Positions 27,704 to 62,314 of a stretch of 64,000 nt of DNA are shown piece after piece. The notes under the pieces were generated by a model. The model made no database searches, was not told the origin of the DNA, and saw nothing but the letters and a program-made list of their open reading frames with translations. Both the position numbers and the translations under genes were made by a program. The DNA is taken from the NCBI GenBank assembly GCA_963794305.1, contig CAWCDQ010000024.1, forward strand, positions 43,648 through 107,647. The letters are read 5' to 3'. This DNA comes from an uncultured Acidobacteriota bacterium (lineage in GTDB: Bacteria; Acidobacteriota; Vicinamibacteria; Vicinamibacterales; CAVVIG01). Within the stretch, counting starts at the first letter, position 1; every line of letters begins with the position of its first letter.

Positions 27704-27705
27704 GA

Positions 27706-29211
<1,506 letters not shown>

Positions 29212-29240
29212 GGCACGAAGAATACAATGATTGTGTCGAC

Positions 29241-30683: not shown

Positions 30684-30689
30684 ACGACG

Positions 30690-31982: not shown

Positions 31983-32001
31983 GTACACTACAATCGCCAC
32001 C

Positions 32002-32706: not shown

Positions 32707-32937
32707 GTGACTACAGGTGAACGCAAGGAACGGCGGGGATTCGCGTCGATGTCGGCCGAGAAGCAGCGCGAGATTGCCAGCAAGGGCGGGCGCGCTGCGC
32801 ACGAGAAGGGCACGGCTCACGAGTGGACCGCCGACGAGGCCAGAAACGCCGGCCGCAAGGGCGGTCAGGTGAGCCGCGGCGGACGAGGCCGGCTCATCGT
32901 TCCGTCCGACGCGCCGCAACCAGAGACGACTGTCTGA
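32707..32937 (+). CDS. KGG-repeat general stress protein
   Basis: RGFASMSAEKQREIASKGG, HEWTADEARNAGRKGG; SD ggaggga upstream. Confidence 0.92.
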   Translation: MTTGERKERRGFASMSAEKQREIASKGGRAAHEKGTAHEWTADEARNAGRKGGQVSRGGRGRLIVPSDAPQPETTV

Positions 32938-33003
32938 AGGTGCGGCGGAAAATCGTGCAGAATGACCCGTTCGATCGAGCGAACGCTTTGGAGGCGACTA
33001 ACA

Positions 33004-34735: not shown

Positions 34736-34744
34736 ACACAGACA

Positions 34745-34805
34745 GGGCTGAGGGACTGGGGGCTCGAGGGCTGGAGAGCACCTGAGCCTCCAGCCCTTGG
34801 CCACT
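34745..34805. repeat. GGGCTGA/AGCCC periodic hairpin after ompA (possible terminator)
   Basis: agggctgagggactggggctcgagggctgga...tgagcctccagccct. Confidence 0.55.
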
Positions 34806-34835
34806 GACGTCCCTCGGTTCCCACCGGAGGATCCT

Positions 34836-35024
34836 ATGCGCTTCATCCACCTCTTCCTGGTCGGTTACTTCCTCCTGGTTCTCGGCGCCGCGCTGGCGCT
34901 GTGGAAGGCCGGCGTTCTCGCTCACGTGAGTGGAACGTGGATGGCGATCGGCGCCATCATCGTCGTTGGCCTTGGCATCATGGTCGCGGTGTCGTCGGCC
35001 AAACCCGCCATTACTCGCGAATAA
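34836..35024 (+). CDS. Small two-TM membrane protein
   Basis: SD ggagg then ATG 34836; two hydrophobic helices. Confidence 0.75.
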   Translation: MRFIHLFLVGYFLLVLGAALALWKAGVLAHVSGTWMAIGAIIVVGLGIMVAVSSAKPAITRE

Positions 35025-35098
35025 GCCGTCGCCCAACGCCGCTGCAAGCCATTCGCCTGTCCTTCCCGCCACGGGATGGCACGCGTTATGGTTCTGTA

Positions 35099-36973
35099 AT
35101 GCGCGCCATGCGTCTCGCGATCGCGTCCGCCGCCGTTGCGCTTGCGGCTCTGTCCGCCGGCTGCAAGGAAGGCGGCACGATCAACGTTCACAGTCTTTCT
35201 TTCAAGGGCGTTCAGGCCGTCGATGAAGGCCGCCTGAAGGACGCGCTGGCGACACACCAGAGCTCGAAGATCCCGTGGGGCAAGAAGTCTTTCTTCGACC
35301 GCTCGCGCTTCGATGCCGACCTGAAACGCATTCAGGCGTTCTACGCGGACCGCGGATTCCCGGACGCGCGCGTAACGGGGTTCGACGTAAAGCTCAACGA
35401 CAAGCAGGACGAAGTCGATCTCACGGTGACGATCGCCGAAGGCGAGCCGGTGGTCGTGAAGTCGATTGCCTTCTCTGGATTCGACGTCGTGCCGGCCGCG
35501 CACCTCGACGATCTCAAGAACCGGCTGCCGGTGAAAGTCGGGCAGCCGCGCGATCGCCAGCTCGTGGTGAGCGCGCACGAGATGGCGGTGAACGAGCTCA
35601 AGGACCACGGCTTTCCCTACGGCAAGGTCTCCACCGCGGAAGACGATGGGAGCGACGGCAAGCAGGCGGTGCTGACGTTCACAGCCGAGCCTGGCCTGCT
35701 CGCACATTTCGGGAAGGTGGAAGTCGTCGGCAACAAGAGCGTCGACGAGCACATCATCCGCCGCCAGTTGACGTTCAAGCCGGGCGAGCTCTATCAGCGC
35801 AACCTGGTGCAGGACTCGCAGCGGCGGCTGTACGGGCTCGAGCTGTTCCAGTTCGCCAACGTCGAGTCGCTGAACCAGGAGCAGCAGCCGGAAGAGGTGC
35901 CGGTTCGCGTGACCGTGGCTGAAGGGAACCACCAGCGCGTGAACTTCGGCGTCGGGTACGGGACGGAGGAGAAGGCGCGCGTCGACGCCGAGTACCACCA
36001 CGTCAATTTTCTCGGCGGAGCGCGGACGGCCGGCGCGCACGTGCGCTGGTCGTCGCTCGATCGGGGCATCCGGCTGGACTTCAACCAGCCGTACTTCATG
36101 AGCCCGCACTTTTCGCTCGGCGCGGAGGGGCAGCAGTGGTACACCTACACGCCCGCGTACACGCGCGGTGACGTCCGGCGCAAAGCTGACGCTGACGCAC
36201 AAATCGAGCGCGCAGACATCGTGGGGCGCATCGATCACGAGCGAGCACGACGTCAGCTCGATCACGGACGAGGCCTTCAACGATCCCACGCTTCGCAACT
36301 ACTTCATCGCGCTCGGTCTCGATCCCACGACGAAGGAGCAGAACGGCACGCTCAACGCGCTGGGCGCCGATTTCCAGCACTCGACGGCCGACAACCTCCT
36401 GAACGCGCACCACGGGTTCCAGATCGCTCTGCACGCCGAGGAAGCGGGCCTCGTCGTGCCTGGCAGTTTCAACTTCTACGCAGGATCGGTGGACGTCCGG
36501 CAGTACCTGCCGCTCGGGGACAGCCTCGTCCTCGCGAGCCGCGCTGCAGGCCGGCAACATCCGGCCGAGCAATGACGATCCGGCGAACGTGCCGTTCGGG
36601 AAGAAGTACTTCCTCGGCGGCGCGACGAGCATCCGCGGATGGGGACGCTACGAGGTCAGCCCGCTCGTGTCGGGCGAGGCGGTGGGCGGCAACAGCATGC
36701 TCGCGTTCAGCGAAGAGCTGCGTGCCGTGTTGCACGGCAACTTCGGCGCTGTGGCGTTCTTCGACGGGGGCAATGTCTGGGCCCGGTCGGTACGGCTTCG
36801 ACCTTCACGATCTGCGATACGCCATCGGTGCGGGACTCAGGTATCAGACGCCGGTCGGTCCCATCCGCTTCGACTACGGGTACCAGCTGAATCCCATTCC
36901 GGATCTGCTCGTCAACGGAGCTCCGCAGACGCGGCGGTATCGCCTGCATTTCAGCATCGGGCAGGCGTTTTGA
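35099..36973 (+). CDS. BamA/TamA family outer membrane protein, frameshifted
   Basis: POTRA-like segments, FLGGATSIRGW, FFDGGNV, GLRYQTPVGPIRFDYG, FSIGQAF. Confidence 0.9.
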   Translation: MRAMRLAIASAAVALAALSAGCKEGGTINVHSLSFKGVQAVDEGRLKDALATHQSSKIPWGKKSFFDRSRFDADLKRIQAFYADRGFPDARVTGFDVKLNDKQDEVDLTVTIAEGEPVVVKSIAFSGFDVVPAAHLDDLKNRLPVKVGQPRDRQLVVSAHEMAVNELKDHGFPYGKVSTAEDDGSDGKQAVLTFTAEPGLLAHFGKVEVVGNKSVDEHIIRRQLTFKPGELYQRNLVQDSQRRLYGLELFQFANVESLNQEQQPEEVPVRVTVAEGNHQRVNFGVGYGTEEKARVDAEYHHVNFLGGARTAGAHVRWSSLDRGIRLDFNQPYFMSPHFSLGAEGQQWYTYTPAYTRGDVRRKADADAQIERADIVGRIDHERARRQLDHGRGLQRSHASQLLHRARSRSHDEGAERHAQRAGRRFPALDGRQPPERAPRVPDRSARRGSGPRRAWQFQLLRRIGGRPAVPAARGQPRPREPRCRPATSGRAMTIRRTCRSGRSTSSAARRASADGDATRSARSCRARRWAATACSRSAKSCVPCCTATSALWRSSTGAMSGPGRYGFDLHDLRYAIGAGLRYQTPVGPIRFDYGYQLNPIPDLLVNGAPQTRRYRLHFSIGQAF

Positions 36974-36975
36974 GC

Positions 36976-37015
36976 AGGGTTCGACGGTTCGAGGGTTCCA
37001 GGGTTCCAGGGTTCC
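36976..37015 (+). repeat. 8-nt tandem repeat (AGGGTTCC) between the TamA-like and TamB genes
   Basis: agggttcgacggttcgagggttccagggttccagggttcc. Confidence 0.75.
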
Positions 37016-37018
37016 GCG

Positions 37019-40000
37019 ATGAGCATCCTGCGACGCGTGACACACGTACTGATCCTCGTGCTGACGCTGCTCGTCGGGGCCGCGGCGGCGGCGGTCATCG
37101 TGTCGCAAACGGCCTGGTTCAAGAACTGGTTGCGCGGCTACATCGTGCGGGAGGCGCAGCAGTATCTGAACGGCACGCTGTCCATCGAGCGCCTTGGCGG
37201 GAATCTGTTTTTCGGCATCGAGATGGAGAACGTCGGGTTGTCGATGGACGGCAGCCAGGTGGTCGCGGTGCAGGATCTCGGCCTCGACTACAACGTCTTC
37301 GAGCTGCTCACCAAAGGCCTGTCCGTCGACAACATTCGTCTCAACAAGCCGGTCGTGTACCTGAGGCGCGAGGGCGATACCTGGTCGCTGAGCCGCCTGG
37401 TCAAGAAACAGGAATCGGAGGCCGACCGCAGCGGTCCCGAGAAGCCGATCGCGATTGACACGATCGGCATCACCGATGGATCGATCGTGGTCGAATCGCC
37501 GGTCGCGACGACGGGCGTCGAGGTGCCGAAGCGGATCGACCATCTCGACGCCCGGCTCTCGTTCAAGTACGAGCCCGTGCGGTATTCGATCGAGATCACC
37601 CAGGTGTCGTTCCGTGGATCCGAGCCGGCGCTCGCGCTCAACGCGCTGTCCGGCGGCATCGCGGTGAAGGACGACACGCTGTTCGTGCAGAAGCTTGCGC
37701 TGCGCACGCCGGAAACATCGCTGTCCTTCGACGGCGCCATCCAGAACTACCTCACCAGGCCGGTCTTCCGTCTCAGCATCAGCTCGGACAAGCTGTCGGT
37801 TCCTGAAATCGCGCGGATCGTGCCGGCGTTGTCCGGCATCGCGCCTTCAGCCGTCGTTCAACGTCAAGACCGACGGCCCGCTCGATCGCCTTGCGGTCGA
37901 GATGCACGTGCAGTCGTCTGCGGGGGCGGCGAGCGGAACACTCGTTGCCGATCTCGAGGAGCCCGGACAGTCGGTCAAGGGTGATCTCTCGGTGCGTCAC
38001 CTCGATCTCTCGGCGCTGATGAACGACCCGAAGCAGAAGAGCGACATCACCGCGAATGCCCGCGTGGACCTGAGCGGCGCGGCGTTGTCGAACGTGAACT
38101 CGCTGCGCGGAAGCGTTTCGCTCGATTCTCCTCGGACGATGGTGGCCGGGTATGTCGCCGAGCGCGTGCGCGCGAATGCCAGGATCGACGGACGGTCGGA
38201 TCGGCATCGACGGCAGCGCCGCCGCGTACGGTGCGTCAGCGACCGTCGCCGGCAACTGTCACGCTCCCGGATCTGGAGCAGCAGGCACGAACCGTGGGCT
38301 TCGATGTCCACGGCAAGGTGCGTGGCGTGAATCTCGCGTCAGCTGCCGCGCGAGCTGGCGATCCCGCCGGCTGTCACGGATGTGAATGCCGACTACCACG
38401 CCGTCGGGTCGGTTCGGTCCGGCTCAAGCCGGACGCTACCGGAACCTAAAACTGCTGCGCCTGCGAGCACTTCGGTAGTGTCCGGCTTGAGCCGGACCAA
38501 CGTGGATCTCCGCTTTCAGCCGTCAACTGTCGCGGGCGCGCGAATTGCCGCTGGCAGTACCGCGGGCGTCACGGTAAACGGCTCGGACATCGCCTATCGG
38601 GCGGATGCGACCGTCGCGAATCTCGATCTCCAGGGTATCGGCGAGCAGTTCCACGTGCCGGCTCTGGCCGATGGCCGCTACAAGAGCGCTATCAACGGCC
38701 ACGTCACCGCGGAAGGAAGGGGCACGACGCCGGCTGCACTGACACTGACGGCCAGCGGCACGCTGAACGATTCGTCGATCCTCGGAGGAACGATTCCGCA
38801 GCTGTCCTTCACCGCGGACGTCGCAGACGACACCGCACATGTGACCGCGTCCGGCGAGTTCGCGGAGTTCGACCCCGCCGCGGCGACGGGCAAGCCGGGG
38901 ATGAAAGGGGATGTCGCCGGCGCGCTCGATGTCGACGCGACGCTGGGTCACCTCTCGAGCGGCGTCACAGCCGACAGCGTGCAGGCCGACGGCAGGCTGA
39001 CGCTGCAACCCTCAACAATCGGCGGCCTCGAGATCGCTCGCGCGTCCCTCGATGGTGGCTATCACGAGTCAGTCGGCAACATCCGGACTCTCGACATCGC
39101 CGGCCGCGATCTGAACGTGAAGGCGAGCGGCACGGTGGCGCTGAACGACACCGGTCAGTCGAACCTCAAGATCCACGCCGACTCTCCGGATCTCGAGACG
39201 ATCGGGAAGCTCGTGGACATGCCGATCACGCGGCATCGGCTCGATCGACGCGACGGTGACCGGCAACCGGCGCGAGTTGAAGGCCGCGGGCCATCTTGTG
39301 GGCGACGGGCTGAAGTACGGCGACAACGGCGCGCTGACCGTCTCGAGTAACTTCGACGCGGCAGTTCCGGATCTCGACATCGCCGAGGCCACCGTGGCCG
39401 GCAACACCCATGCGACGTTCGTTTCCGTCGCCGGTCAGGACATCAACGAGCTCGACGCAAAGACGACGTACAAGCGGAAGCAGCTCGACTTCGACGCGAC
39501 GGCCAAACAGCCGCAGCGATCGCTGGGAGCCGCCGGTTCGCTCGTGCTTCATCCGGACCATCAGGAAGTCCATCTTCAGCGGCTTGGTCTCCAGGCGCAG
39601 GGGCAGTCGTGGCAGCTCGCGCAAGGTTCGCAGACCACGTTCAACTACGGCCACGACACGGTGGCCGTGCACGACCTCGCGCTCGTCAACGGCAGTCAGC
39701 GTATTACGGCCGACGGCGCGTTCGGCCATGCGGGTGAAGCGTTGAACGTGACGCTGACGAGCGTCGATCTGGCGAGCGTCGATACGCTGCTGCTGCGTCC
39801 GCCTCAACTCACCGGAAAGCTCACCGCCTCCAGTACCGTGACCGGCACGACCGACGCGCCCGAGATCGCCGCCGAGTTCCGCGTCGAGAACGGCGGCTTC
39901 CAGCAGTACCGCTACGATTCGTTCGGCGGGACCGTGAAGTACGCCGGCGCGGGGGTGACCGTCGACACCAGGCTGCAGCAGAACCCGACGACCTATCTGA

Positions 40001-48242: not shown

Positions 48243-49821
48243 CTACCTCCGATCCGGTGTCACCACGCGTCCGCCCATCTTGCCCGTGAAAGCGTCAGCG
48301 TCCTTCTCGATGATGCCGTTCACCAGGACGTAGTCCATGCCCTCGGACAGCTGGTGCGGTTCCAGGTAGGTGGCCGCGTCCCGCACCTTCGCGGGATCGA
48401 AAATCAACACGTCGGCCCATGCGCCCGGACGCAGGGTTCCGCGATCCTTCAAGCCGAAGACGCCCGCGGGCAGGCTCGTCATCGAGCGGATCGCGAACGG
48501 CAGATCGATGGTGCCGCGCTCGTTCACGTAGACATGGATCTTCCGCGCGAACGCGCCGTTGCCGCGGGGATGCGGCTTGCCCTGACCGAAGGGAACCAGG
48601 TCGCCGTCCGTGCATGTCATGGTGAACGGTCTGCCGCATGATCAGCTCGATGTCGCCTTCCGTCATGTTGAAGGACACGAGGCTCGCGTCGCCCTTCAGC
48701 AGGAGCTCCATGGCCGTCTCGTCGGCAGGCTTGCCGAGCGCCTTCGCGACCTGCGCGAGCGACTGGCCTTCATACGACGGGTTCGGCGCATAGCGTGAGA
48801 TCACGAGCTTCTCCGGGCCGCCGCGCCGCTCGAAGTTGCGGCGGATGTCGGCCGCGAGCCGGTCGTGGTCCGCGCCCTGAATCCGTCCGAGCAGCTCGTT
48901 GCGGCCGCCGACCTCCGCCCAACGCGGGATGAGCGCGCCGACGATGCCGGTGCCGCTCGCGTCGTAGGGATACTGATCCGCGTACACCTCGACACCGCGA
49001 TCGCGCGCCTGCTTGATCCGCTCCACGAGCGCCATCGACAGTCCCCAGCTCGCCGGCCCGAGCGCTTTCATGTGCGCCACGATGCCCGGCAAGTGGCCTT
49101 CTTCCGCGATCCGAATCACTTCCTGCACGGCGCCGACGACGCCGATGTTGTAGTCGGCCTCGTCGCGGATGTGGCTTTCGTAGACGCCGCCCATCTCGCC
49201 GACGACCTTCGCGATCGCGATCACCTCTTCGGTCTTCGCATAGCTGCCTGGCGCGTAGTACAGGCCCGACGACAGTCCGATGCCCCCGGCTTCCATGCCA
49301 TTTCTGGCCATCGCGATCATCCGGTCGAGCTCGGCCGCCGTCGGCGCTCGATCGGCCATGCCGACGATCTCGCGACGAATGGCTCCATGCGGAACGTACA
49401 GCGCCACGTTCACGCCGACGCCTCGCTGCTCGAAGCCGGCGCGCTGCGTCCGCAGATCCGGCGTGCCGCCGCCGTCCGGGTTCAACGCGACCGTGGTGAT
49501 GCCTTGCGCAATCAGCTGGCGCGCCTCCTTCAGGGATCCTTCGAGCCCCTGGGACGCATGCGAATGCACGTCGATGAAACCGGGCGATACCGTTCGTCCC
49601 TGGGCATCGATCACACGGGACGCCGCGGCGTTTCCGAGGCGGCCCATGTCCACGATCCGTCCACCGCGGATGCCGATGTCGGTGGCGATCCACGGGTTGC
49701 CGCTTCCGTCGAGCACGCGGCCGTTGCGAATCAGAACGTCGTAAGACGCCGGACTTTGTGTGAAGGGCGAGGCTGTGAACGCGAGCAGAATGAGGGCGAA
49801 GAGGATGAGCCGTGTCCGCAC
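48243..49821 (-). CDS. N-acyl-D-amino-acid deacylase (D-aminoacylase) family, frameshifted
   Basis: PGFIDVHSH, SGLYYAPG, SHIRDE, ADQYPY, HPRGNG. Confidence 0.9.
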
Positions 49822-49850
49822 GGCGTCATTCTTGCTCAAACACGACTGGG

Positions 49851-50846
49851 ATGGCGAAACGGAAGATCTCGACTGTCGGCGGTCTGCGCCACGTGTCCGA
49901 CGGGCAAACCACCGGAATCAGACGCGTGGGCACCCCGGGTCGATTTCGTTACGTGCGCCCGAACGGCCGCCCGGTTGGCGCGGCCGAGCTGAAGCGCATC
50001 AAGGCGCTTGTCATCCCGCCCGCGTGGACCGACGTCTGGATCTGCCCTGATGCGCGCGGGCATCTGCAGGCGACCGGCCGGGATGCACGCGGCCGCAAAC
50101 AGTATCGCTATCACGCGCGCTTCCGCCGGATGCGCGACGAGGTGAAGTACAACCGCCTGCCGGCCTTTGCCCAGGCCCTGCGCCGAATTCGCCGGCGCAC
50201 CGCGGCCGACGTTCGCAAGGCCGGGCTTCCTCGAGTGAAGGTGCTCGCGGCTGCCGTCCAGCTCCTCGAGAAGACCCTGATCCGCATCGGCAACGAGGAA
50301 TACGCGCGCGCGAACGGGTCGGTCGGGCTCACGACGATGCGCGATCGCCACGCGAGAATCGATGGCGCGTCGGTTCGATTCGAGTTTCGCGGCAAGAGTG
50401 GCATCTCGCACGCCGTCGATCTTCACGACGCTCGCCTCGCGCGCATCGTCAAGGCGTGCCGCGATCTGCCCGGGCATGAGCTGTTCCAGTACGTCGACGA
50501 GCAAGGCGAGCGGCAGACGATCGGCTCCGACGATGTGAACGCGTACCTGCGCGAGGTGAGCGGCGACGACTTCACCGCCAAGGACTTCCGCACCTGGGCC
50601 GGGACCGTGCTGGCCGCGCAGGCCCTCGCGCGCCTTGCGCGGTTCACGTCGCATACGGAAGCCAGACGGAACGTGACGCGGGCGATTGCGTGCGTCGCCG
50701 ATCGGCTCGGCAACACCAGGGCGGTGTGCCGCAAGGCGTACATCCACCCCGCGGTCGTGGCGGCCTACATGGACGGCAGACCGATGGCGACCGACGAGGC
50801 CGGAGTCGCCGCGATGATCGGCCGGCGCCGACCTCATTACGTATAA
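49851..50846 (+). CDS. Bacterial DNA topoisomerase IB
   Basis: IPPAWTDVWI, GRDARGRKQYRYH, IRIGNEEY, FRGKSG, AKDFRTW, LGNTRAVCRKAYIHP. Confidence 0.93.
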   Translation: MAKRKISTVGGLRHVSDGQTTGIRRVGTPGRFRYVRPNGRPVGAAELKRIKALVIPPAWTDVWICPDARGHLQATGRDARGRKQYRYHARFRRMRDEVKYNRLPAFAQALRRIRRRTAADVRKAGLPRVKVLAAAVQLLEKTLIRIGNEEYARANGSVGLTTMRDRHARIDGASVRFEFRGKSGISHAVDLHDARLARIVKACRDLPGHELFQYVDEQGERQTIGSDDVNAYLREVSGDDFTAKDFRTWAGTVLAAQALARLARFTSHTEARRNVTRAIACVADRLGNTRAVCRKAYIHPAVVAAYMDGRPMATDEAGVAAMIGRRRPHYV

Positions 50847-50854
50847 TCAGCGCG

Positions 50855-53239
50855 ATGCCTCGCGCGACGTCGGCGGTTGGTCGCAACGTGCTCCGGAAGG
50901 AAGGCTCGTTGAAGACCGCCGGCTCAGCGAAGTACATCGACGACATCACGTTCCCGGACATCCTCCACGGGCGCACGATCCGCTCGACGATTCCCGCCGG
51001 TGAGATCTCGTCGATCCGCTGCAACTTCGACACGGCCGGTTTCACCATCGTCGACGTCCGCGATATTCCTGGGCGCAACGTTGTCGCGCTGATCGAAGAC
51101 GATCAGCCCTGTCTGGCGGAGCGCGCGATACGGCATTTCGCGGAACCGATCCTGCTGCTGGCCCACGAGGATCGCGACAGGCTGCATGCAGCCGACGTCC
51201 AGATCGAATACGTGCCGTCGACGCCGCTCTACGACGCAGAGGCGTCGCCCACCGTGTTCAAGACGATCAGCATCGAGAAAGGCAGCGTCGCCGACGGCTT
51301 CGCGCTCGCCGACCACGTGATCGAGGGCGAATACCGGATGGGGCATCAGGAGCAGCTCTACATCGAGCCGAACGGGGTCATCGCCGTGCCGGGCAACGGG
51401 GTACCGGACGACGTCGACGGGATCACGGTGTACGGATCGATGCAGTGCCCGTACTACGTGCACCGCGCGCTGATGGTGTTGCTCGGCCTTCCCGGCGACA
51501 AGGTTCGGGTGGTCCAGACGGAGACGGGCGGCGGCTTCGGCGGCAAGGAGGAATACCCGTCGATGATCGCCGGCCACGCGGCGCTGCTCGCCAGGAAAGC
51601 CGGGCGGCCGGTGAAGCTGATCTACGACCGCGTCGAGGACATGGTGGCGACGACCAAGCGCCATCCGGCGATCATTCGGCACAGGACCGGCGTCACGCGC
51701 GACGGCAGGCTCACGGCGATCGACATCGACGCGGTGTTCGACGGCGGCGCCTATGCGACGCTGAGCGCCGTCGTCCTGTCTCGCGGCGTGATTCACGCGA
51801 GCGGTCCCTATCGCTGCGACCACATCCGGATCCACGGCCGCGCGACGATGACCAACACGCCGCCCAACGGGGCGTTCCGCGGGTTCGGCGCGCCGCAGAC
51901 GCAGTTCGCGGCCGAGGTCCACATGGATCGGATCGCCGCCCAACTTGGCCTCGATCCCGTTCGCCTGCGCGAAATCAATGCCTTGCGACCCGGCGACACC
52001 ACGGCCACCGGTCAGCGCCTCGGCAAGGACTGCAGCGCCCTCCAGGTGCTGCGCGACGCCGTGAAGCGGACCGGGTTCAGGAAACGCAGGCGGGAGATAG
52101 CGCTCGCGAATCGTCTGGCGTCATCGCCACGAAACCGGAGCGGGACAGCCGCAGGCCATCAGCCGCTGCGGGGAATCGGTCTCTCTCTCTTTTTTCATGG
52201 CTCGGGGTTCACCGGCGGCGGCGAGGTCAAGCTGGCGTCGAAGGCGTCGCTGGCCCTCACCGACCGCGGCGCTCGCGTGCTCGTTGCGAGCACCGAGATC
52301 GGTCAGGGCACGCGGACGATGCACGCGCAGATTGTCGCCGACACGCTCGGCCTTCCTTACGACTGCATCGACGTCAATGCGGCCGATACGGCAGCCGTCC
52401 CCGACAGCGGGCCGACGGTGGCCTCGCGGACGTGCATGGTGGTGGGGCGCATCCTGCAGCGCTGCGCGGAAGAGATGAAGGAGCGGCTCGGCGCGCTGAC
52501 GCCGAAGGAATATCTCCGGCTGCACGGCCCGCTCGTGATCACGAAGGAGTACGAACGGCCCGGCGAGATGACCTGGGACGACGCCAGCTATCGCGGCGAT
52601 GCGTATGGCAGCTATGGGTGGGGCTGCGACGTCGTGGAACTCGCCGTCGACCGCGACACCTGGGAGGTGCAGCCGGTTTCGTTTCTCACGGTCCACGAGA
52701 TTGGCCGGGCGATTCATCCCATGCTCGCCACCGGGCAAATCGAAGGCGGCAGCGCGCAGGGGCTCGGCTACGCCCTGCTCGAGGAGGTCGTGATGCGCGA
52801 GGGCCGGATGGCCAACGCGTCGCTGACCAACTACATCATCCCGACCACGCTCGACTCGCCCGAGATGAAGGTCTTCATGCTGGAGAACCCGTACGCGCAC
52901 GGTCCCTTTGGCGCGAAGGGTGTCGGAGAGATGCCCATCGACGGTCCGGCGCCGGCGGTCGTCAACGCGCTGCGTCACGCGGGCTTCGATGTCCGCGCGA
53001 TTCCGGCGACGCCGGAGCGCATCATGGCGGCGTCGCCGGCTGCGCCGGCTCCACCGAAACAAAGGACACAAAGGAGACAAGGACACGAAGGAAAGGCAGT
53101 CGCCGTTGACCTCTGTGTCCTTTGTGTCCTTTGTGTTGAATGGCCGGCGCAGGAAGCTCGCTGTTCATCCGATGCGACGGCTGCTCGACGTGCTGCGCGA
53201 GGAATGCGCGCTGACCGGAACAAAGGAAGGGTGCGGTGA
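50855..53239 (+). CDS. Xanthine dehydrogenase family molybdopterin-binding subunit (conserved part ends near 53040)
   Basis: QEQLYIEP, GGGFGGKE, AFRGFGAPQ, EIGQG, GQIEGG, GAKGVGE. Confidence 0.92.
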   Translation: MPRATSAVGRNVLRKEGSLKTAGSAKYIDDITFPDILHGRTIRSTIPAGEISSIRCNFDTAGFTIVDVRDIPGRNVVALIEDDQPCLAERAIRHFAEPILLLAHEDRDRLHAADVQIEYVPSTPLYDAEASPTVFKTISIEKGSVADGFALADHVIEGEYRMGHQEQLYIEPNGVIAVPGNGVPDDVDGITVYGSMQCPYYVHRALMVLLGLPGDKVRVVQTETGGGFGGKEEYPSMIAGHAALLARKAGRPVKLIYDRVEDMVATTKRHPAIIRHRTGVTRDGRLTAIDIDAVFDGGAYATLSAVVLSRGVIHASGPYRCDHIRIHGRATMTNTPPNGAFRGFGAPQTQFAAEVHMDRIAAQLGLDPVRLREINALRPGDTTATGQRLGKDCSALQVLRDAVKRTGFRKRRREIALANRLASSPRNRSGTAAGHQPLRGIGLSLFFHGSGFTGGGEVKLASKASLALTDRGARVLVASTEIGQGTRTMHAQIVADTLGLPYDCIDVNAADTAAVPDSGPTVASRTCMVVGRILQRCAEEMKERLGALTPKEYLRLHGPLVITKEYERPGEMTWDDASYRGDAYGSYGWGCDVVELAVDRDTWEVQPVSFLTVHEIGRAIHPMLATGQIEGGSAQGLGYALLEEVVMREGRMANASLTNYIIPTTLDSPEMKVFMLENPYAHGPFGAKGVGEMPIDGPAPAVVNALRHAGFDVRAIPATPERIMAASPAAPAPPKQRTQRRQGHEGKAVAVDLCVLCVLCVEWPAQEARCSSDATAARRAARGMRADRNKGRVR
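53057..53137. repeat. 9-nt periodic ACACAAAGG/CCTTTGTGT hairpin at the Mo-subunit/2Fe-2S junction
   Basis: acaaaggacacaaaggagacaaggacac...ctctgtgtcctttgtgtcctttgtgtt. Confidence 0.8.
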
Positions 53240-53645
53240 AGGGGAGTGCGGCGCGTGCACGGTGTTGATCGACGGCGTTCCCGTGAACTCGTGCCTTGTC
53301 CCGGTCGCGCAGGTGGCAGGAAGGCGCGTGACGACGATTGAAGGGCTGAACGGCCGGCATCCGCTTCAGCACGCCTTCGTGGAACACGGCGGCGCGCAGT
53401 GCGGCATCTGCACGCCCGGAATGATCCTGGCCGCCGTGGCGCTCGGCAAGAATCCGACAATCGATCAAATGAAGACCGGCCTCGCCGGCAATCTGTGTCG
53501 ATGCACTGGCTACTCGGCGATCTATCGATCGATCGAAGCGGCTGGCATTAACCGCAGAGTCCGCGGAGCACGCGGATCAAGAAATCTTCAACGATCAGCT
53601 GGTCAAAAGCGTCGAATCAACAAGAACGCTCGGAGAAAGGCGTGA
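53106..53645 (+). CDS. XDH family 2Fe-2S subunit
   Basis: GTKEGCGEGECGACTV, QCGICTPG, GNLCRCTGY. Confidence 0.92.
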   Translation: MTSVSFVSFVLNGRRRKLAVHPMRRLLDVLREECALTGTKEGCGEGECGACTVLIDGVPVNSCLVPVAQVAGRRVTTIEGLNGRHPLQHAFVEHGGAQCGICTPGMILAAVALGKNPTIDQMKTGLAGNLCRCTGYSAIYRSIEAAGINRRVRGARGSRNLQRSAGQKRRINKNARRKA

Positions 53646-54123
53646 TCGTGATCTGTCACTGCTCTTGCAGCCCCGCCTCGCATGGAACACACCGCGAGCG
53701 CGTTGAACAAGCTGACCGAGCAGATCATCGGAGCCGCCATCCACGTGCATCGGACGCTGGGCCCGGGATTGCTGGAATCGGCGTACGAAGCCTGCCTGCA
53801 TCAGGAGTTGGTCACTCGAGGAATGGCGGTCGAGAGACAGAAACCTCTCCCGCTCTCATACGGCGATGTCGCTCTGGACTGCGTCTACCGGATGGATATG
53901 GTGGTCGAGAACGCCGTGGTCGTGGAGGTGAAGTCGGTCACCAAGCTCGATCGGGTGCACGAAGCGCAGCTGCTGTCGTATCTCAAACTGTCGAAGAAGT
54001 GTGTCGGTCTCATGATCAATTTCAACGTCAACGTGCTGACGGAAAATGGAATCAAGCGCCGTGTGAACGGTTTTCCCGAGTAGTCCGTCGTCTCAGCGGG
54101 CTCGGCGGGCTCCGCGGTTAATG
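53546..54123 (+). mobile_element. Candidate element: GxxExxY gene bounded by 31-bp imperfect inverted repeats
   Basis: Left cattaaccgcagagtccgcggagcacgcgga vs reverse complement of right cattaaccgcggagcccgccgagcccgctga (26/31 identical); interrupts the XDH subunit genes. Confidence 0.6.
53682..54083 (+). CDS. GxxExxY protein (PD-(D/E)XK-like)
   Basis: IIGAAIHVHRTLGPGLLESAYE, YRMDMVVE, VEVK, HEAQLLSYLK, GLMINF. Confidence 0.93.
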   Translation: MEHTASALNKLTEQIIGAAIHVHRTLGPGLLESAYEACLHQELVTRGMAVERQKPLPLSYGDVALDCVYRMDMVVENAVVVEVKSVTKLDRVHEAQLLSYLKLSKKCVGLMINFNVNVLTENGIKRRVNGFPE

Positions 54124-54126
54124 TAG

Positions 54127-55006
54127 ATGGCTGTGTCGATATCACACCGCACGCTGCTCGAGCCCAGGTCGCTCGCTGGCGCCTTGAAGATGCTGCGCGA
54201 CGAGGGGCCGCTCGTGCCGATGGCGGGCTGTACCGACCTCTTCGTCTCGCTCAATTTCGGCACGTTGAAGGACACGCGCTTCCTGAACCTGTGGGCGCTC
54301 GACGCGCTCCGGGCGATCGAGATGCGGAACGGCCTGCTCTTCATCGGCGCGCTGGCGACGTATACCGATCTCATCCGATCCCCGCTCGTTCGTCGTCGAA
54401 TCCCCATGCTGGCCGCCGCGGCGCGCGAGGTCGGAGGCGTGCAGATTCAGAATCGCGGAACGCTCGGCGGCAACGTCGCCAACGCCTCGCCGGCTGGCGA
54501 CACGTTGCCGGTGCTCGCCGCCGCCGAGGCGGTCGTCGTGCTCCGCAGCGCGGCCGCTTCGCGCCGCGTACCGTTCGCCGCGTTCTACACGGGATACCGC
54601 CAGTCGGTCAGACGTCCGGACGAGCTGATCGTCGGGTTCGAAATTCCCGCGATCGGCGGCGAACAGTGGTTCCGAAAAGTCGGGACGCGCGCGGCGCAAG
54701 CCATTTCGAAAGTCGTCGTGGCCGCAGTGGCGCCTTCCGCTTCCACGCGCGGCAGGCGCCGGGCCGGCGGTTCAGGGCGATCTCGACGGCGCCGTGCGGA
54801 TCGCTCTGGGCAGCGTCGGCCCAACCGTCGTGCGGGCGGTGCGAACCGAAGAGGCGCTGGCGGGCGGCGCCTCCCTCGTCGATGCGCAGCGCATTCTCGT
54901 CGAGGAGATCGCGCCAATCGACGACATTCGCTCCACGGCCGAGTACCGCCGGCGCGTCGCGTCCAACCTCCTCGCGCGGTTTTGGACCGACACGCAACGC
55001 AGGTAG
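54127..55006 (+). CDS. XDH family FAD-binding subunit, frameshift near 54770
   Basis: AGCTDL, QIQNRGTLGGNVANASPAGD, PIDDIRSTAEYR. Confidence 0.92.
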
Positions 55007-55040
55007 AATAATCCTCGCCCCCGTCACTCGACCTTCCTGA

Positions 55041-56291
55041 ATGAGAGCCGCCGTCGTCTGCCTCGGAGACCTGGGACGCAGCGCCCGCATGCGGTACCAC
55101 GCGCACGCGCTGGCGCGCAACGGCGTCGACGTCGACCTCGTCGGCCTCGAAGGGACGCCGCTCCCTCAGGCGATCGCGGAAGAATCCCGCATCAAGGTCC
55201 ACCGCCTGGAGAACCCGCGACTGAAAATCCGCGGAGACCTGATCGGCTCGCCGTACGCCGTGGCCGGGCTGTTCGACGCGATGCGCATCGGCTTCCGGCT
55301 CTGGCGCATCCTGCGGACGCTGCCCCGGCCGGATCTGGTGCTCGTCCAGAATCCGCCTGCCTTTCCGACGCTGGCGGTCAGCTGGTTCGCGCTGAGGCGT
55401 CGCGGCGTGCGGTTCGTCATCGACTGGCACAACCTCGGCTACACCCTGCTGCAATTGCGGCTGGGCCGGTGGCACCCGGCGGTGCGGCTCGCGCGCTGGT
55501 ACGAGCGGCGCGATGCGCGAGTCGTCGATGCGAACCTCTGCGTGTCGCGCGGGCTCGCGGCGTTCCTGGAGAGCCGCTTCGGCGTGACGCATGCGCAGGT
55601 GCTGTACGACCGTCCGGCGTCCGCGTTCGCGCCAATCGATCGCGCCGAGCGCGAACGCTTCCGGCAGGCGTTGTTCGCGCGGCTCGGGATCCGGGCGAAC
55701 ACCGTCGGGTTCATCGTGTGTCCCACGAGCTGGACGGAGGACGAGGATTTCGACGTCGTCATCGAAACGGTGATGCGTCTGGAGGAGCGCATTCGCGGCT
55801 GGGAAGCCGGCGAATCCGGCCGGCGCTTTCCGGATCTCGTGATTCTGGTGACCGGCGACGGCGCGCGACGCGCGGAGTTCGAGCGGCGCTTTGCCGGCCT
55901 GCCGGCGCGACGCATTCAGCTGCGCGCGCGCTTTCTCGAGCCCGAGGACTATCCGCGCGTGGTCGGCAGCGCGGATCTGGGTCTGTGTCTCCATCGCTCA
56001 TCGTCGGGGCTCGACATCCCGATGAAGATTGCCGATCTGTTCGGTGCCGGCGTGCCGGTCTGCGCGCTGGACTACGGCGCGTGCCTGGCGGAGCGGGTGC
56101 GCCACGGCGACAACGGTCTCCTCTTCTCGAACGGGCGCCAGCTCGCCGACATCCTCTTCGAGCTCTTCGAGGCGTTCCCCGCGGATCAGAAAGCGCTCGA
56201 GCGCTTGCGGACCGGCGCCCGCAAGCTCGCGCGGCCGACCTGGGAAGAAGGCTGGACGCGCGAAGCCCGCCCGGTGCTGCTCCCGCAGTAG
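55041..56291 (+). CDS. ALG1-like (GT33) beta-1,4-mannosyltransferase homologue
   Basis: LGDLGRSARMRYHA, QNPPAFP, IDWHNLGY, TSWTEDEDF, DYPRVVGSADLGLCLHRSSSGLDIPMK. Confidence 0.85.
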   Translation: MRAAVVCLGDLGRSARMRYHAHALARNGVDVDLVGLEGTPLPQAIAEESRIKVHRLENPRLKIRGDLIGSPYAVAGLFDAMRIGFRLWRILRTLPRPDLVLVQNPPAFPTLAVSWFALRRRGVRFVIDWHNLGYTLLQLRLGRWHPAVRLARWYERRDARVVDANLCVSRGLAAFLESRFGVTHAQVLYDRPASAFAPIDRAERERFRQALFARLGIRANTVGFIVCPTSWTEDEDFDVVIETVMRLEERIRGWEAGESGRRFPDLVILVTGDGARRAEFERRFAGLPARRIQLRARFLEPEDYPRVVGSADLGLCLHRSSSGLDIPMKIADLFGAGVPVCALDYGACLAERVRHGDNGLLFSNGRQLADILFELFEAFPADQKALERLRTGARKLARPTWEEGWTREARPVLLPQ

Positions 56292-56324
56292 CTATAATGG
56301 GCGCCGTTTCAAGGGCTCTAGCCG

Positions 56325-57708
<1,384 letters not shown>

Positions 57709-57733: not shown

Positions 57734-59273
57734 ATGCCGTTCGTCGAATCGGTGCTAGTCGTCCGCAGCAACCGCATCGTCCTGCCGGAAGGGGAGCGGT
57801 CTGCCGCGCTGCACATCTCCGGCGGCGTCATCGAACGGATCGTCGAATACGCAAGCGAAGACCCGACCGGCGCGAGAGTGTTCAACGTGCCCGACCTGGT
57901 GATCTCGCCGGGCCTGGTCGACACGCACGTGCACATCAACGAGCCGGGGCGTACCGAGTGGGAAGGCTTCGATACGGCCACGCGGGCCGCGGCGTGCGGC
58001 GGCGTCACGACACTCGTCGACATGCCGCTCAACAGCGTGCCGGCGACCACCTGCGTCGCCGGACTGCACGCGAAGATGCGGGCGGCACGGGCACAGTGTC
58101 ATGTCGACGTGGGATTCTGGGGCGGTGTCGTTCCGGGGAATGCGGCGGAGCTCGATCCGCTGATCGACGCCGGCGTGCGCGGGTTCAAGTGCTTTCTCGT
58201 GCCGTCCGGCGTCGACGAATTTCCGCCGGTTACGGAGGACGACCTGCGCCGTGCGCTGCCCATTCTCGCGCGCCGCAACATGCCGCTGCTGGTGCACGCC
58301 GAACTCATTGCGGATCGCGGATTGCGGACTGCGGATTCGACTCCGCAACCCGATCCGCAATCCAATCCGCAATCCGCAATCCACAACCCGCAATACGCCT
58401 CGTACCTCGCCTCCCGTCCGGCGGGGATGGAGCTGGACGCCATCCGCCTGCTGATCCGGCTGGCCGAGGAATTCCGGACGCGCATTCACGTCGTGCACGT
58501 GTCGTCGGCCGAAGGCGCCGCGGCGATTGCCGGCGCCAAGGCGGCCTGGGTGCCGATCACCGCGGAGACGTGTCCTCACTACCTGACGTTCGCGGCCGAC
58601 GAGATCCCCGACGGCGCCACGCAGTTCAAGTGCGCGCCTCCGATTCGTGAGGCGTCGCATCGCCAGGCGCTGTGGGAGCGACTGGCGAGCGGGGCGCTGG
58701 ATTTGATCGCCACCGATCACTCGCCCTCTCCGCCCGCGCTCAAGACGCCCGGCGATTTCTCGACCGCATGGGGCGGGATCGCGTCGATGGAGCTGTCGCT
58801 GCCCGCCGTCTGGACCGCGTACCGTGAGGCTGTCGCGCGGGGCGTTCCAACGTCGGTCACGCAGACGTCTGCATCCGGCGCGGCCAGCGACGATCGCTCC
58901 GCTGGGCATGCGGCTGCCGGTCGCACCCGCGACGAGCGGGACGAAGCGTGGGCTCGCGGCGCCGGCGCTGCCCGCCGCGGCGCAGACGGCTGCGCGCGTC
59001 GACCTCGCCCGATGGATGAGCTCGGCCCCGGCGGCGCTCGCGGGACTCGGCCATCGAAAGGGGCGCATCGCCGAGGGGCTGGATGCCGATCTGGTCGTAT
59101 GGGATCCGGATCTGGAATTCTGTGTCGAGTCTTCGCGGCTGCAGCAGCGTCACAAGCTGACGCCGTACGCCGGGCGATGGCTGTTCGGGACGGTGCTCAC
59201 CACGTTCGTGCGCGGCGAGCGTGTGTGGGACAAGAACAGGCTGACGCGAGCCTACGGCGGCCAGCTGCTATGA
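57734..59273 (+). CDS. allB: Allantoinase, with insertions and a frameshift
   Basis: DTHVHINEPGRTEWEGF, DMPLNS, ETCPHYL, FKCAPPIR, AWGGIAS, HKLTPY. Confidence 0.92.
58307..58394. repeat. ATTGCGG/CCGCAAT 7-nt periodic hairpin in frame within allB
   Basis: attgcggatcgcggattgcggactgcgga...aatccgcaatccgcaatccacaacccgcaat. Confidence 0.85.
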
Positions 59274-60259
59274 GCGCATCGTTTCTCGAACTGATCGATC
59301 TCGCCTCCGTGCGCCTTGGCGCGTCGGTGGTCGCCGCCAACGACGAGTTCTTCGCGGAGAAGGAAAACCTGATCAAGTCGGCCGCGCCGGTGTGGCGCGA
59401 AGGCGAGTACACCGATCGCGGCAAGTGGATGGACGGCTGGGAGACGCGCCGCCGCCGCGACCTGGGTCCCGACGCGCACGACTGGTGCATCGTGCGGCTG
59501 GGCACGAGGGGAATTGCACGCGGCGTCGACGTGAACACCGCGTTCTTCACCGGCAACTATCCGGAGTCGTGCGCGATCGATGGCTGCGATCTGCCCGGCA
59601 CGCCAACGCCGGAGGCGCTCGTGCGGGCGGCGTGGCGCGAGTTGATGCCGCGCGGTCCGCTCAAAGGCGACGCGCACAACATCATCGCCATCGACAACGC
59701 TCCGGCGGCGACACACCTGAGGCTTCGCATCTACCCGGACGGCGGCGTTGCGCGCCTGCGCGTCCACGGCGAAGTCGTCGCCGATTGGGATCGGCTGCGC
59801 CGTCACGGAGACGTCGACCTGGCCGCCGCCGAGCATGGCGGAACCGTCGTCGCGTGCAGCGACATGTTCTACGGATCGCGGCACAATCTGATCATGCCCG
59901 GCGAGGCGACGCACATGGGCGACGGATGGGAAACGAAGCGGCGCCGCGGTCCCGGCAACGACTGGACGATCGTCCGGCTCGGCGCCGAAGGGACGATCCG
60001 GCGGGTTGACGTCGATACGCGTCATTTCAAAGGGAACGCGCCCGGCGAATGCAGCGTCGACGCGGTCCGGCTCGCGGAGGGTCAGCTGCTCGAGAACGCG
60101 GCGTGGCATGAGCTGCTGCCACGCACGCCGCTGCAGCCTCATACCCGTCATGCGTTCGAAGAAGAGCTGCGGGATGTCGGCGACGCCACGCACGCGCGCC
60201 TCAACATTTTTCCCGACGGCGGCATCGCGCGCCTGCGGCTCTGGGGACGACCGCGATGA
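59270..60259 (+). CDS. alc: Allantoicase
   Basis: Two repeats of DGWET(R/K)RRR; PDGGVARLRVHG. Confidence 0.93.
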   Translation: MSASFLELIDLASVRLGASVVAANDEFFAEKENLIKSAAPVWREGEYTDRGKWMDGWETRRRRDLGPDAHDWCIVRLGTRGIARGVDVNTAFFTGNYPESCAIDGCDLPGTPTPEALVRAAWRELMPRGPLKGDAHNIIAIDNAPAATHLRLRIYPDGGVARLRVHGEVVADWDRLRRHGDVDLAAAEHGGTVVACSDMFYGSRHNLIMPGEATHMGDGWETKRRRGPGNDWTIVRLGAEGTIRRVDVDTRHFKGNAPGECSVDAVRLAEGQLLENAAWHELLPRTPLQPHTRHAFEEELRDVGDATHARLNIFPDGGIARLRLWGRPR

Positions 60260-60334
60260 GCCGGCAGACGAAGCTCTTGCGATTGCACACGCGCGCCGTG
60301 TTCACGCGTGGCGCGGCCTCCACCGGTTGACGAG

Positions 60335-60874
60335 ATGCGCCTCGCCGAACTCAACGCGCTCGATGAGAACAGGGCGGCGGACGAATTGCGGCGTTGCTGC
60401 GGGTCGTCGCGGTGGGCGCGGCAGATGGCTCAGGCGCGGCCGTTCGACGGCATCGACGCGCTGACCGCCGCGGCGGACTCGGTCTGGAGGGCGTTGGATC
60501 GGGCCGACTGGCTCGAAGCCTTCGCGGCGCATCCTCGGATTGGCGCGGGCTCTGCCGGGAGATCGGAAACCGACGCGAGCTCCCGGCCGGACGGGACCGC
60601 CGCCTGGTCGGACGCGGAGCAGGCCGGGGTTTCCGGGTCGGCGGAGCGGACGCGCCGGCGGCTCGTCGAGGCCAACGAGGACTACCTGGCCCGCTTCGGA
60701 TACATTTTCATCGTCTGTGCGACCGGCAGGACCGGCGACGAGATGCTCGACATCCTCGAGGCGCGGCTGCGCAACGATCCCGATCGGGAGCTGCGCATCG
60801 CGGGCGAGGAGCAGCGAAAAATCACGCGGCTGCGGCTGGCAAAACTAGTCGGAGAGGAACCGGATACTCCATGA
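60335..60874 (+). CDS. uraD: OHCU decarboxylase
   Basis: CCGSSRW, EAFAAHPRIG, EQAG, RFGYIFIVCATG, EQRKITRLRL. Confidence 0.92.
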   Translation: MRLAELNALDENRAADELRRCCGSSRWARQMAQARPFDGIDALTAAADSVWRALDRADWLEAFAAHPRIGAGSAGRSETDASSRPDGTAAWSDAEQAGVSGSAERTRRRLVEANEDYLARFGYIFIVCATGRTGDEMLDILEARLRNDPDRELRIAGEEQRKITRLRLAKLVGEEPDTP

Positions 60875-61314: not shown

Positions 61315-62200
61315 ATGTCAGATCTGTCCTGGAACCGTTACGGCAAGTCGCGTATCCGGCTGGTCAAGGTGCGCCGGCCCCGGGCTGGTGCCGGGACTGC
61401 CGGTTCCCACGGGGCGGATGCCCCGCACGAGCTCGTCGACCTGACGATCGACGTGCAGCTCGAGGGCGACTTCGGCGCTGTTTACGTGGACGGCGACAAC
61501 ACGCCGTGCCTGGCGACAGACACGATGAAGAACACCGTCTACGCCATGGCGCGGCACGATCCCATCGACCATGTCGAAGCCTTCGCGTCGAGGCTCGCCG
61601 CGCATTTCCTGACGAAGCCGGCCGTGTCGCGCGTTCGCATCAGCGCCGTCGAGCAGCCGTGGGATCGTCTATCGGTCCGACGGACAGCCGCACCCCCACG
61701 CCTTCGTGCAGCCGGGGGGCGAGCAGTGGACCGCGGAGGTGACGTGCGACGCGCGCGGGATCGACATCGTCTCCGGACTGGCGAACCTCGTCGTGCTGAA
61801 GACGTCGGATTCCGCGTTTGCGGGGTTTCCGCGCGACGAGTACACGACGCTGCCGGACACCGACGATCGGATCATGGCGACCTCGATCCGCGCGGCCTGG
61901 ACGTATCGCCGAGGTTCAATCGACTTCTCGGTTCGAGCGGCCGTGCGCCGGGCGCTCCTCGAAACGTTCGCCGCGCACGTCAGCCGCTCGGTCCAGCACA
62001 CGCTGTATGCGATGGGGGAGGCGGCCTTGTCCGCATGCCCCGACGTCACGGACATCACGCTCTCGCTGCCGAACCGGCATCACCTGCTCGTCGACCTGAA
62101 ACCGTTCGGCCTCGACAACCCGAACGAGATCTTCGTGGCGACGGACCAGCCGTTCGGTCTGATCGAGGCGACGATCAGACGTGCTGAAGGGACGGCCTGA
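61315..62200 (+). CDS. pucL: Factor-independent urate hydroxylase (uricase), frameshift near 61680
   Basis: YGKSRIRLVKV, ATDTMKNT, LKTSDSAF, DEYTTL, SVQHTLY, PNRHH, PFGLIE. Confidence 0.92.
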
Positions 62201-62314
62201 AGGCCGTCCCCTACGTTTTGTGTCCAGTGTCCGCTTCGTGTCGTAGTGTCGTAGTAGGGACCGGACGTAAGGCCGGCCTGTCGTAGTCGTAGGGACCGGC
62301 CTTCAGGCCGGTCC
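62189..62314. repeat. Cluster of GTAG-type REP palindromes
   Basis: gggacggcctgaaggccgtcccctac; gtagggaccggccttcaggccggtcc. Confidence 0.8.

Follow-up and report, generated by a model that had tools for sequence, protein, structure and literature searches.

An orphan ALG1/GT33-family glycosyltransferase gene within a purine-catabolism operon of an uncultured acidobacterium

We analyzed a 64,000-nt stretch of contig CAWCDQ010000024.1 (hereafter, the window) from an uncultured soil bacterium of the Acidobacteriota (Vicinamibacterales; CAVVIG01), and in it a glycosyltransferase gene at positions 55041 to 56291 whose product we call P0001. Judged by its sequence, P0001 is a genuine homologue of ALG1, a family which we take to be CAZy GT33 / EC 2.4.1.142 (chitobiosyldiphosphodolichol beta-1,4-mannosyltransferase), and not an ordinary member of family GT4. 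In eukaryotes, ALG1 attaches the first mannose during N-glycan assembly. Relatives of ALG1 are already known from bacteria, and it is the orphan state of this copy that is unusual. With moderate confidence, we read P0001 as a bacterial ALG1-family enzyme from a lineage (family f1 of the order) that lost the partner genes of a glycosylation cluster and kept the GT33, whose product would feed a glycoconjugate that does not depend on STT3, and whose position among purine genes would be inherited. The gene was taken from a listing of open reading frames (ORFs) and their translations, as follows:

55041..56291, + strand: GT33/ALG1-family glycosyltransferase P0001, 416 aa, intact, ATG start.

The reading frame contains no internal stops, and the opposite strand of the same interval is interrupted by a stop. 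A preliminary description of this DNA, made from the letters and an ORF listing, had reported an intact 416-residue frame with five motifs, a codon style like that of the host, no N-terminal transmembrane helix, and a location between the FAD subunit of xanthine dehydrogenase (XDH) and hydA; all of these observations hold. The motifs GDLGRSARMRYHA, QNPP, IDWHNLGY, TSWTEDEDF, and SADLGLCLHRSSSGLDIPMK can be read in the translation. GC content at third codon positions (GC3) is 0.87, compared with 0.82-0.83 for three neighbors (the type IB topoisomerase, the XDH molybdopterin subunit, and the OHCU decarboxylase), so the codon composition is host-like. The upstream gene is an XDH FAD subunit (PF00941, 6.7e-41) whose stop lies 29 nt before the GT33 ATG, and a dihydropyrimidinase-like gene starts 33 nt after the GT33 stop. 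In an AlphaFold2 model of P0001 the first beta-strand begins at residue 2, which pairs with residue 28 of the eukaryotic Syssomonas homologue P0190 in the phmmer alignment. Given the short upstream spacer and this predicted strand, there is no room for an N-terminal transmembrane helix. The bacterial relatives are mostly of similar length (380-450 aa), and we regard the N-terminal membrane anchor as the eukaryotic form of ALG1 and do not treat it as family-defining. P0001 is probably a soluble or peripherally membrane-bound enzyme of the GT-B type.

Membership in the ALG1 family is indicated by full-length similarity and by conserved positions. A phmmer search with P0001 against 1.84 billion representatives returned 3284 matches at E<=1e-3; at E<=1e-30, 954 clusters remained. 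Ten matches were checked by name: four were eukaryotic, two carried the JGI name "beta-1,4-mannosyltransferase," and four had no name; the same JGI name is attached to many of the 120 closest homologues. The Globisporangium ultimum protein annotated "Beta-1,4-mannosyltransferase" is 44% identical to P0001 (E 3e-82), and proteins from Syssomonas, Paulinella, and Chloropicon are 38-39% identical (E 2e-78 to 5e-73). Eukaryotic ALG1s align along the entire length of P0001 at 38-44% identity, and full-length E-values for the eukaryotic ALG1 clade run from 1e-73 to 1e-88. Of 53 positions with at least 90% conservation across a diverse set of 39 bacterial members, P0001 retains 50 (the changes are A to V, T to A, and L to I), and four eukaryotes share nearly all of the 53. 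P0001 also holds all 21 invariant columns of a 53-sequence alignment.

Domain databases and solved structures give a more generic picture, which would favor the alternative that P0001 is an ordinary bacterial GT4 enzyme with a superficial likeness to ALG1. Pfam, which has no ALG1-specific model, finds only generic GT-B domains in P0001 (Glyco_trans_4_4, 2.2e-15; Glyco_trans_1_4, 1.6e-8), and NCBIfam holds no equivalog for it. The AlphaFold2 model, computed from the 53-sequence alignment, is a GT-B fold of two Rossmann domains (predicted local distance difference test, pLDDT, 94.3; predicted template-modeling score, pTM, 0.93). Its nearest solved structures are the GT4 enzymes MshA and BshA (3c4q, 3mbo, and 5d00), with template-modeling scores of about 0.63-0.74, Foldseek E-values of about 1e-15, and 14-18% identity. 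No chain in the PDB matches P0001 by sequence, whether it is searched as a single sequence or as a family profile, so no GT33 structure is available. We nevertheless consider an ordinary GT4 exceedingly improbable. Matches to the eukaryotic ALG1 clade have full-length E-values of 1e-73 to 1e-88, against 1e-15 for the generic domain models, the GT33-like rows split from a GT4 outgroup (three domains only, on a long branch) at a support of 100 in both FastTree and IQ-TREE, and no GT4 paralogue in the same genome matches P0001 at E<=0.001. The gene is single-copy in that genome (6.13 Mb, 48 contigs, 90% complete). Elsewhere, the fusion proteins P0167, P0187, and P0203 (718-798 aa) join a GT33 domain to a second domain of GT4 type. 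The ALG1 assignment proposed in the preliminary description is thus borne out by the full-length eukaryotic matches, the tree split, and the conserved positions, and the grouping with ordinary GT4 proteins that it named as a possible contrary result is not seen.

Bacterial members of the family have been described recently. In the accessible part of an earlier study, prokaryotic relatives of ALG1 had not been found and its origin was called unknown (Lombard 2016, PMC4973528). According to the accessible text of a later preprint, the bacterial homologues of ALG1 number 204 (E 6e-22 to 1e-104), a single archaeal match is unreliable, some of the bacterial homologues have beta-1,4-mannosyltransferase activity, and a bacterial origin of ALG1 is argued (Xu et al., bioRxiv 10.1101/2025.10.15.682550). 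As given there, three of the five bacterial homologues assayed (from Gammaproteobacteria, Polyangia, and Binatia) complemented yeast alg1-delta and made Man1GlcNAc2-PP-phytanyl in vitro (10.1101/2025.10.15.682550). In the main text of the preprint, no homologue from Acidobacteriota is mentioned, nor is any gene context or native role (10.1101/2025.10.15.682550).

We examined the origin of P0001 with two trees, a FastTree of 147 rows and an IQ-TREE of 61 rows under a site-heterogeneous model, both rooted on the three GT4 domains. The named eukaryotes fall in a single clade with a support of 97 (FastTree) and 99 (IQ-TREE); the unnamed rows of this clade were assigned to it only after the first tree was seen. 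In the IQ-TREE result, the eukaryotic clade lies inside a clade of 27 rows (95), whose other members include bacterial sequences from clusters that contain STT3 and P0149, a protein from a Terriglobia metagenome-assembled genome (MAG). The f1 clade of the window (99) groups apart from the eukaryotes, with the unlabeled bacterial representatives P0125 and P0137. A constraint uniting the f1 clade with the eukaryotes cost 52 log-likelihood units (delta lnL) and was rejected by the approximately unbiased test (p-AU 0.018). As these trees have it, eukaryotic ALG1 is one clade nested within a broad bacterial radiation, and the ancestry of P0001 is bacterial, not eukaryotic.

The preliminary description had offered two origins, an old transfer from a eukaryote to a bacterium or a bacterial sister clade with a new acceptor. 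Horizontal acquisition from a eukaryote would account for the high identity of P0001 to eukaryotic ALG1 and for the nearest Atlas cluster being labeled 66% Eukaryota. We find it very unlikely, since the eukaryotes form one clade within a different bacterial clade from that of the window and the constraint uniting them is rejected; the codon composition is host-like, the gene occurs in at least 77 related species, and bacterial copies sit in clusters of bacterial type. The second origin comes nearer, the bacterial clade belonging to a broad bacterial radiation with the eukaryotes nested inside it. A new acceptor is neither shown nor favored, as the family-conserved positions are kept in P0001.

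In other bacteria, GT33 genes lie among genes for the early steps of lipid-linked glycan assembly. One group of relatives, the clade of locus L080, has GT33s that are 42-47% identical to P0001. A gene of the WecA/ALG7 family (PF00953) divergently adjoins the GT33 gene in L080 (2.8e-39) and in L079 (65% identical to that of L080), and a WecA-like gene does so in 15 of the 16 metagenome loci of this clade that have upstream sequence, the exception being L085. An ABC exporter and a MatE protein are found near the GT33 in the same clade. Nine further loci, equally distant from P0001, carry fuller clusters, among them L158, L162, L143, and L156 below, to which L171 from the order of the window is added:

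L158, 189-11314: two tandem STT3-like genes, MurG-like GT28, GT33, GT4, ABC exporter.
L162: STT3-like, MurG-like, GT33, GT4, ABC.
L143, 1574-11036: WecA-like, STT3-like, MurG-like, GT33, GT4, ABC.
L156: STT3/PglB-like gene (PF02516, 1.7e-16) directly upstream of GT33.
L171, 2377-13199 (genome G069, of the same order as the window): GT4, ABC, WecA-like, MurG-like, GT33; an STT3 match lies about 2.3 kb from GT33 on the same contig.

These contexts, and the GT33-GT4 fusion proteins, support a polyprenyl-diphosphate-linked N-acetylhexosamine (HexNAc) as the putative acceptor for the family. No description of bacterial ALG-like clusters with STT3 was found among the listed matches from the open-access literature, as represented by titles and the starts of abstracts.

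The window copy has no such company. Whole-genome profile searches placed no match to PF00953, PF02516, PF08660, PF04101, PF02397, PF00535, or PF00534 in the window (C24:43648-107647), so that the preliminary claim of no other glycosylation genes there holds for these seven Pfam families. Across the genome, which is 90% complete, the profile searches gave no match to STT3 or Alg14; of the ALG13/14 and STT3 homologues that the preliminary description had proposed to look for, none was found except MurG. MurG is 4 kb away from the only PF00953 match, which identifies the latter as MraY. Orthologues of the cluster-type WecA, MurG-like, GT4, and ABC proteins were not found in this genome, where the cluster-protein queries retrieved MraY (28% identity), MurG, partial GT4 matches (E 1e-9 to 1e-15), and ABC nucleotide-binding domains. 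The genome does carry, outside the window, two Bac_transf phosphoglycosyl transferases along with 28 GT2-type and 30 GT4-type matches. On contig C4, at about 26400-38700, a cluster of surface-glycan type groups a Bac_transf gene with an ABC exporter and several GT4/GT2 matches, one of which contains an in-frame TGA, and this region may be an alternative pathway served by the orphan GT33.

The same pattern extends across family f1. We sampled 81 genomes evenly across the order, which are kin and so not independent, and scored GT33 presence at E<=1e-30. Eleven genomes have GT33: six belong to f1 (68-100% identity), and the other five to families f2, f8, and f9 (44-49%). Each of the five genomes outside f1 also contains a strong STT3 match (E 2e-16 to 8e-30) together with a WecA-like orthologue (48-62% identity), and in four of these genomes both are only a few kb away from GT33; a further genome, G048, has STT3 and the WecA-like gene and no GT33. 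STT3 did not reach the family cut-off in any f1 genome with GT33, neither in the six of the order sample nor in five further close relatives. Only three of the six f1 genomes contain a PF00953 paralogue, which is weak, generic, and of a type widespread in the order. Some f1-type GT33 genes still have a remnant partner beside them. In L060 and L064 this is an orthologous ABC exporter, in L116 a GT4, and these remnants fit a descent of the f1 GT33 from a cluster-embedded ancestor.

With its partner genes gone and several neighbors frameshifted in this assembly, the GT33 gene might itself be decaying, as a leftover of an N-glycosylation cluster since lost, and have no present function. This seems highly improbable to us, because the ORF is intact, 50 of the 53 conserved positions are kept, the gene has been retained in at least 77 species, and the ratio of nonsynonymous to synonymous substitution rates (dN/dS) is 0.04-0.23 (Nei-Gojobori, 23 comparisons), being equally low where purine neighbors are missing. 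With GT33 in f1 under strong purifying selection and no oligosaccharyltransferase found in the 11 f1 genomes, its ALG1 chemistry would have to serve something other than STT3-dependent protein glycosylation.

From the family assignment, the conserved positions, and the assays and contexts of relatives, we infer that P0001 would transfer mannose from GDP-mannose to a HexNAc-terminated polyprenyl-diphosphate glycan in beta-1,4 linkage. The ancestral GT33 may have worked with WecA/ALG7-like, MurG-like (ALG13/14-like), GT4 (ALG2-like), ABC-exporter, and STT3 genes. In f1 this package would have been lost and GT33 alone kept. As f1 has no STT3-type enzyme, the product probably enters another glycoconjugate, which could be, for example, a surface polysaccharide or glycolipid begun by another phosphoglycosyl transferase.

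A bolder version, to which we give only a slim chance, is that the ALG1-type enzyme of f1, an abundant family in soil, has become uncoupled from protein N-glycosylation, mannosylates another lipid-linked acceptor and has its expression tied to the purine/nitrogen-scavenging operon. The boldest candidate for this acceptor is Lipid II (GlcNAc-beta1,4-MurNAc-PP-undecaprenol), the only HexNAc-beta1,4-HexNAc-PP-polyprenol whose synthetic enzymes (MraY and MurG) are present in the genome. If true, the ALG1 fold would gain a new physiological role, which might open a way to capped peptidoglycan strands or to a new glycolipid.

The genes around GT33 make up a purine-catabolism operon that runs from XDH to uricase, as follows:

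49812..50846, + strand: bacterial type IB DNA topoisomerase (TopIB), upstream of the XDH genes (PF01028 Topoisom_I, 6.4e-42; PF21338 Top1B_N_bact, 4.6e-25).
50690..53239, + strand: XDH-family molybdopterin subunit (PF02738, 5e-84; PF20256, 2.1e-54; pucD-like, 1.5e-138, below the equivalog cut-off).
52908..53645, + strand: ORF with the XDH [2Fe-2S] subunit (PF01799, 5.3e-24; PF00111; pucE-like, 6e-48), the domains lying in ORF residues 73-213.
54127..55011, + strand: XDH FAD-binding subunit.
56325..57705, + strand: dihydropyrimidinase/hydantoinase-like amidohydrolase (hydA; TIGR02033, 5.9e-53, residues 4-149 only).
57752..60253, + strand: allantoinase (4.4e-129), then allantoicase (9.5e-129).
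60308..60874, + strand: OHCU decarboxylase (PF09349, 2e-45).
61315..62191, + strand: urate oxidase; only the first half matches, with a frameshift near 61677-61682 in this assembly (two frames).
62189..62210, + strand: terminator-like hairpin after uricase (9 pairs, 8 GC); the total of such sites in the scanned region does not exceed that of shuffled sequences.

Several of these genes are imperfect in the assembly. Compared with the L001 and L007 orthologues, hydA is frameshifted near 56761-56765 (two high-scoring segment pairs, HSPs, in different frames), and contigs from RNA libraries of other strains show 1-nt differences at 56759/56760. Against the same two loci, allantoinase (57752-59270) changes frame between about 58876 and 58998, and an apparent allantoinase-allantoicase fusion ORF of 841 aa (57734-60259) is a read-through artifact, with the allantoinase C-terminus in another frame (HSPs in frames 3, 1, and 3). 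The frameshifts in hydA, allantoinase, and uricase may be assembly indel errors or real gene decay. The real start of the XDH molybdopterin subunit is probably downstream of 50690. An ORF between the [2Fe-2S] and FAD genes (53642-54121, + strand, 159 aa) has no Pfam or NCBIfam match and no tblastn match in the 80 related loci, its GC3 is only 0.40, and in that frame it is unlikely to be a real gene. A divergent ORF at 49836-50837 (- strand, 333 aa), first taken as a conserved partner of the glycosyltransferase, proved to be the antisense shadow of TopIB.

To see how stable this neighborhood is, we collected relatives from species-representative genomes, keeping the best 80 of 99. Among these, 77 are 63-92% identical to P0001, nearly all of them from MAGs of Acidobacteriota/Vicinamibacteria/Vicinamibacterales. 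Eight contigs with a GT33 of Vicinamibacterales or L080 type (L034, L040, L049, L056, L057, L074, L078, and L079) are titled Bifidobacterium/Bifidobacteriaceae, Casimicrobiaceae, Acidimicrobiales, or cyanobacterium, labels that look like mis-binning or mislabeling. The f1-type loci number 78, of which 77 come from these genomes and one is that of the window; upstream sequence is available for 73. Immediately before GT33, the 73 loci carry the XDH FAD subunit (27), NDH-2 (20), TopIB (13), or another gene (13); the XDH FAD subunit also precedes GT33 in 32 of 53 f1-type metagenome contigs. This recurrence in independently assembled species rules out the chimeric contig that the preliminary description had named as a possible refutation. 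Downstream of GT33, an aldehyde dehydrogenase is found in 17 and a hydA-like gene in 10 of all 81 loci. The aldehyde dehydrogenase (PF00171, 1.6e-141; 9297-10781 in L060) sits between GT33 and the hydA-like gene in the 17 related loci, and the window is without it.

TopIB stands directly before XDH wherever XDH is present, and the frame from TopIB to the glycosyltransferase is constant with variable purine genes on both sides. The state with XDH upstream requires at least six changes on the glycosyltransferase tree, counted as gene-tree changes and not as species-tree events, and is already found in the early-branching f1 members L066 and L060. We abandoned an earlier idea, the insertion of an XDH cassette within a single subclade, given the purine context in early-branching members and these repeated changes of state. 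Since dN/dS is also low at loci that lack purine neighbors, GT33 is maintained independently of the purine genes. Its place within the XDH-to-uricase operon looks positional, a matter of inherited local gene order.

GT33 is probably co-transcribed with the XDH FAD subunit and hydA. No terminator-like site lies between genes in the FAD-GT33-hydA interval, and four metatranscriptome libraries from soil contain contigs over GT33 that differ from the window at few positions. The junction with the FAD gene is bridged by X17 record 10 (54809-55357) and X19 record 17 (54912-55219), and that with hydA by X15 record 6 (56039-56534), X17 record 13, and X20 record 28, which is consistent with a shared transcript. 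The stretch 53600-54040 is essentially without RNA-contig coverage in all four runs. A promoter-like site at 54983-55012 is the sole one in 14.3 kb, with 0.9 expected by chance, and is not evidence.

A more direct explanation of the setting would be that P0001 was recruited to purine catabolism, where it would glycosylate a purine or ureide metabolite, or modify or mature XDH. Its tight, same-strand packing inside the operon agrees with this idea, as do the RNA-library contigs bridging both junctions, the upstream XDH FAD gene in 27 of 73 related species (early-branching ones included) and 32 of 53 metagenome contigs, and the small-molecule GT4 enzymes MshA and BshA among the nearest solved folds; recruitment would also explain why GT33 lies between XDH and the ring-opening enzymes. 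We still judge it improbable. At 46 of the 73 f1-type loci the gene immediately before GT33 is not one for XDH, and GT33 is kept there with a dN/dS just as low; P0001 conserves the positions shared with ALG1s that act on lipid-linked acceptors. Two apparent fusions of the XDH FAD subunit with the glycosyltransferase are artifacts: P0237 is a frameshift-ridden ORF in which true glycosyltransferase segments alternate with out-of-frame text, and the 738-aa frame in G077 is out-of-frame, high-GC sequence, with the FAD subunit in frame 1 and the glycosyltransferase in frame 3. We know of no purine pathway step that requires a glycosyltransferase. The purine-operon setting given in the preliminary description is therefore real, and a role in purine catabolism does not follow from it, as about a third of related species have the arrangement and GT33 is kept equally without it; likewise, the synteny it proposed to check is found at 27 of the 73 loci, and other genes stand upstream at 46.

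Several observations weigh against our preferred reading, that f1 lost the partner genes and kept an active GT33 whose purine position is inherited. In the accessible text of the preprint discussed above, two of the five bacterial homologues, from Deltaproteobacteria and Methylomirabilota, were inactive (10.1101/2025.10.15.682550). In the window genome (90% complete), a source of the GlcNAc2-PP-lipid acceptor was not identified, the only PF00953 enzyme being MraY, and the type-II GDP-mannose pyrophosphorylase TIGR01479 was not found, other nucleotidyltransferase types not having been searched. Four of the five close relatives carry a second, generic PF00953 gene, for which reason we do not claim that f1 lacks an initiating enzyme. 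The purine context, given its presence in the early-branching L066 and L060, may have been retained for long through selection, and the changes of state that argue for variability come from a gene tree. The RNA evidence consists of assembled contigs with uncontrolled DNA carry-over, which cannot demonstrate a single transcript.

With the window comes a large and well-conserved clade of acidobacteria in which ALG1 is kept under strong selection after the loss of the oligosaccharyltransferase and other early-pathway genes. Beyond f1, the eukaryotic clade nests among GT33s from clusters with homologues of ALG7, ALG13/14, ALG2, STT3, and a flippase, a placement relevant to the assembly of the eukaryotic pathway.

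Among known systems, the GT4 enzymes MshA and BshA resemble P0001 in fold only, belonging to a different family at 14-18% identity, and their mechanism is retaining, different from that of the ALG1 family. Eukaryotic ALG1 shares with P0001 a colinear catalytic region, the signature positions, and (for P0001, in the model) the GT-B fold. It differs in that P0001 has no N-terminal membrane anchor, the window genome has no Alg14 or STT3, and the two fall in separate clades. The cluster-embedded bacterial GT33s of L143, L158, and L171 are homologous at 43-48% identity, whereas the window copy is without partners nearby or elsewhere in its genome. The bacterial ALG1s of Xu et al. belong to the same family as P0001 by the BLASTp criterion used there, and the activity reported for them is the one that we propose for P0001.

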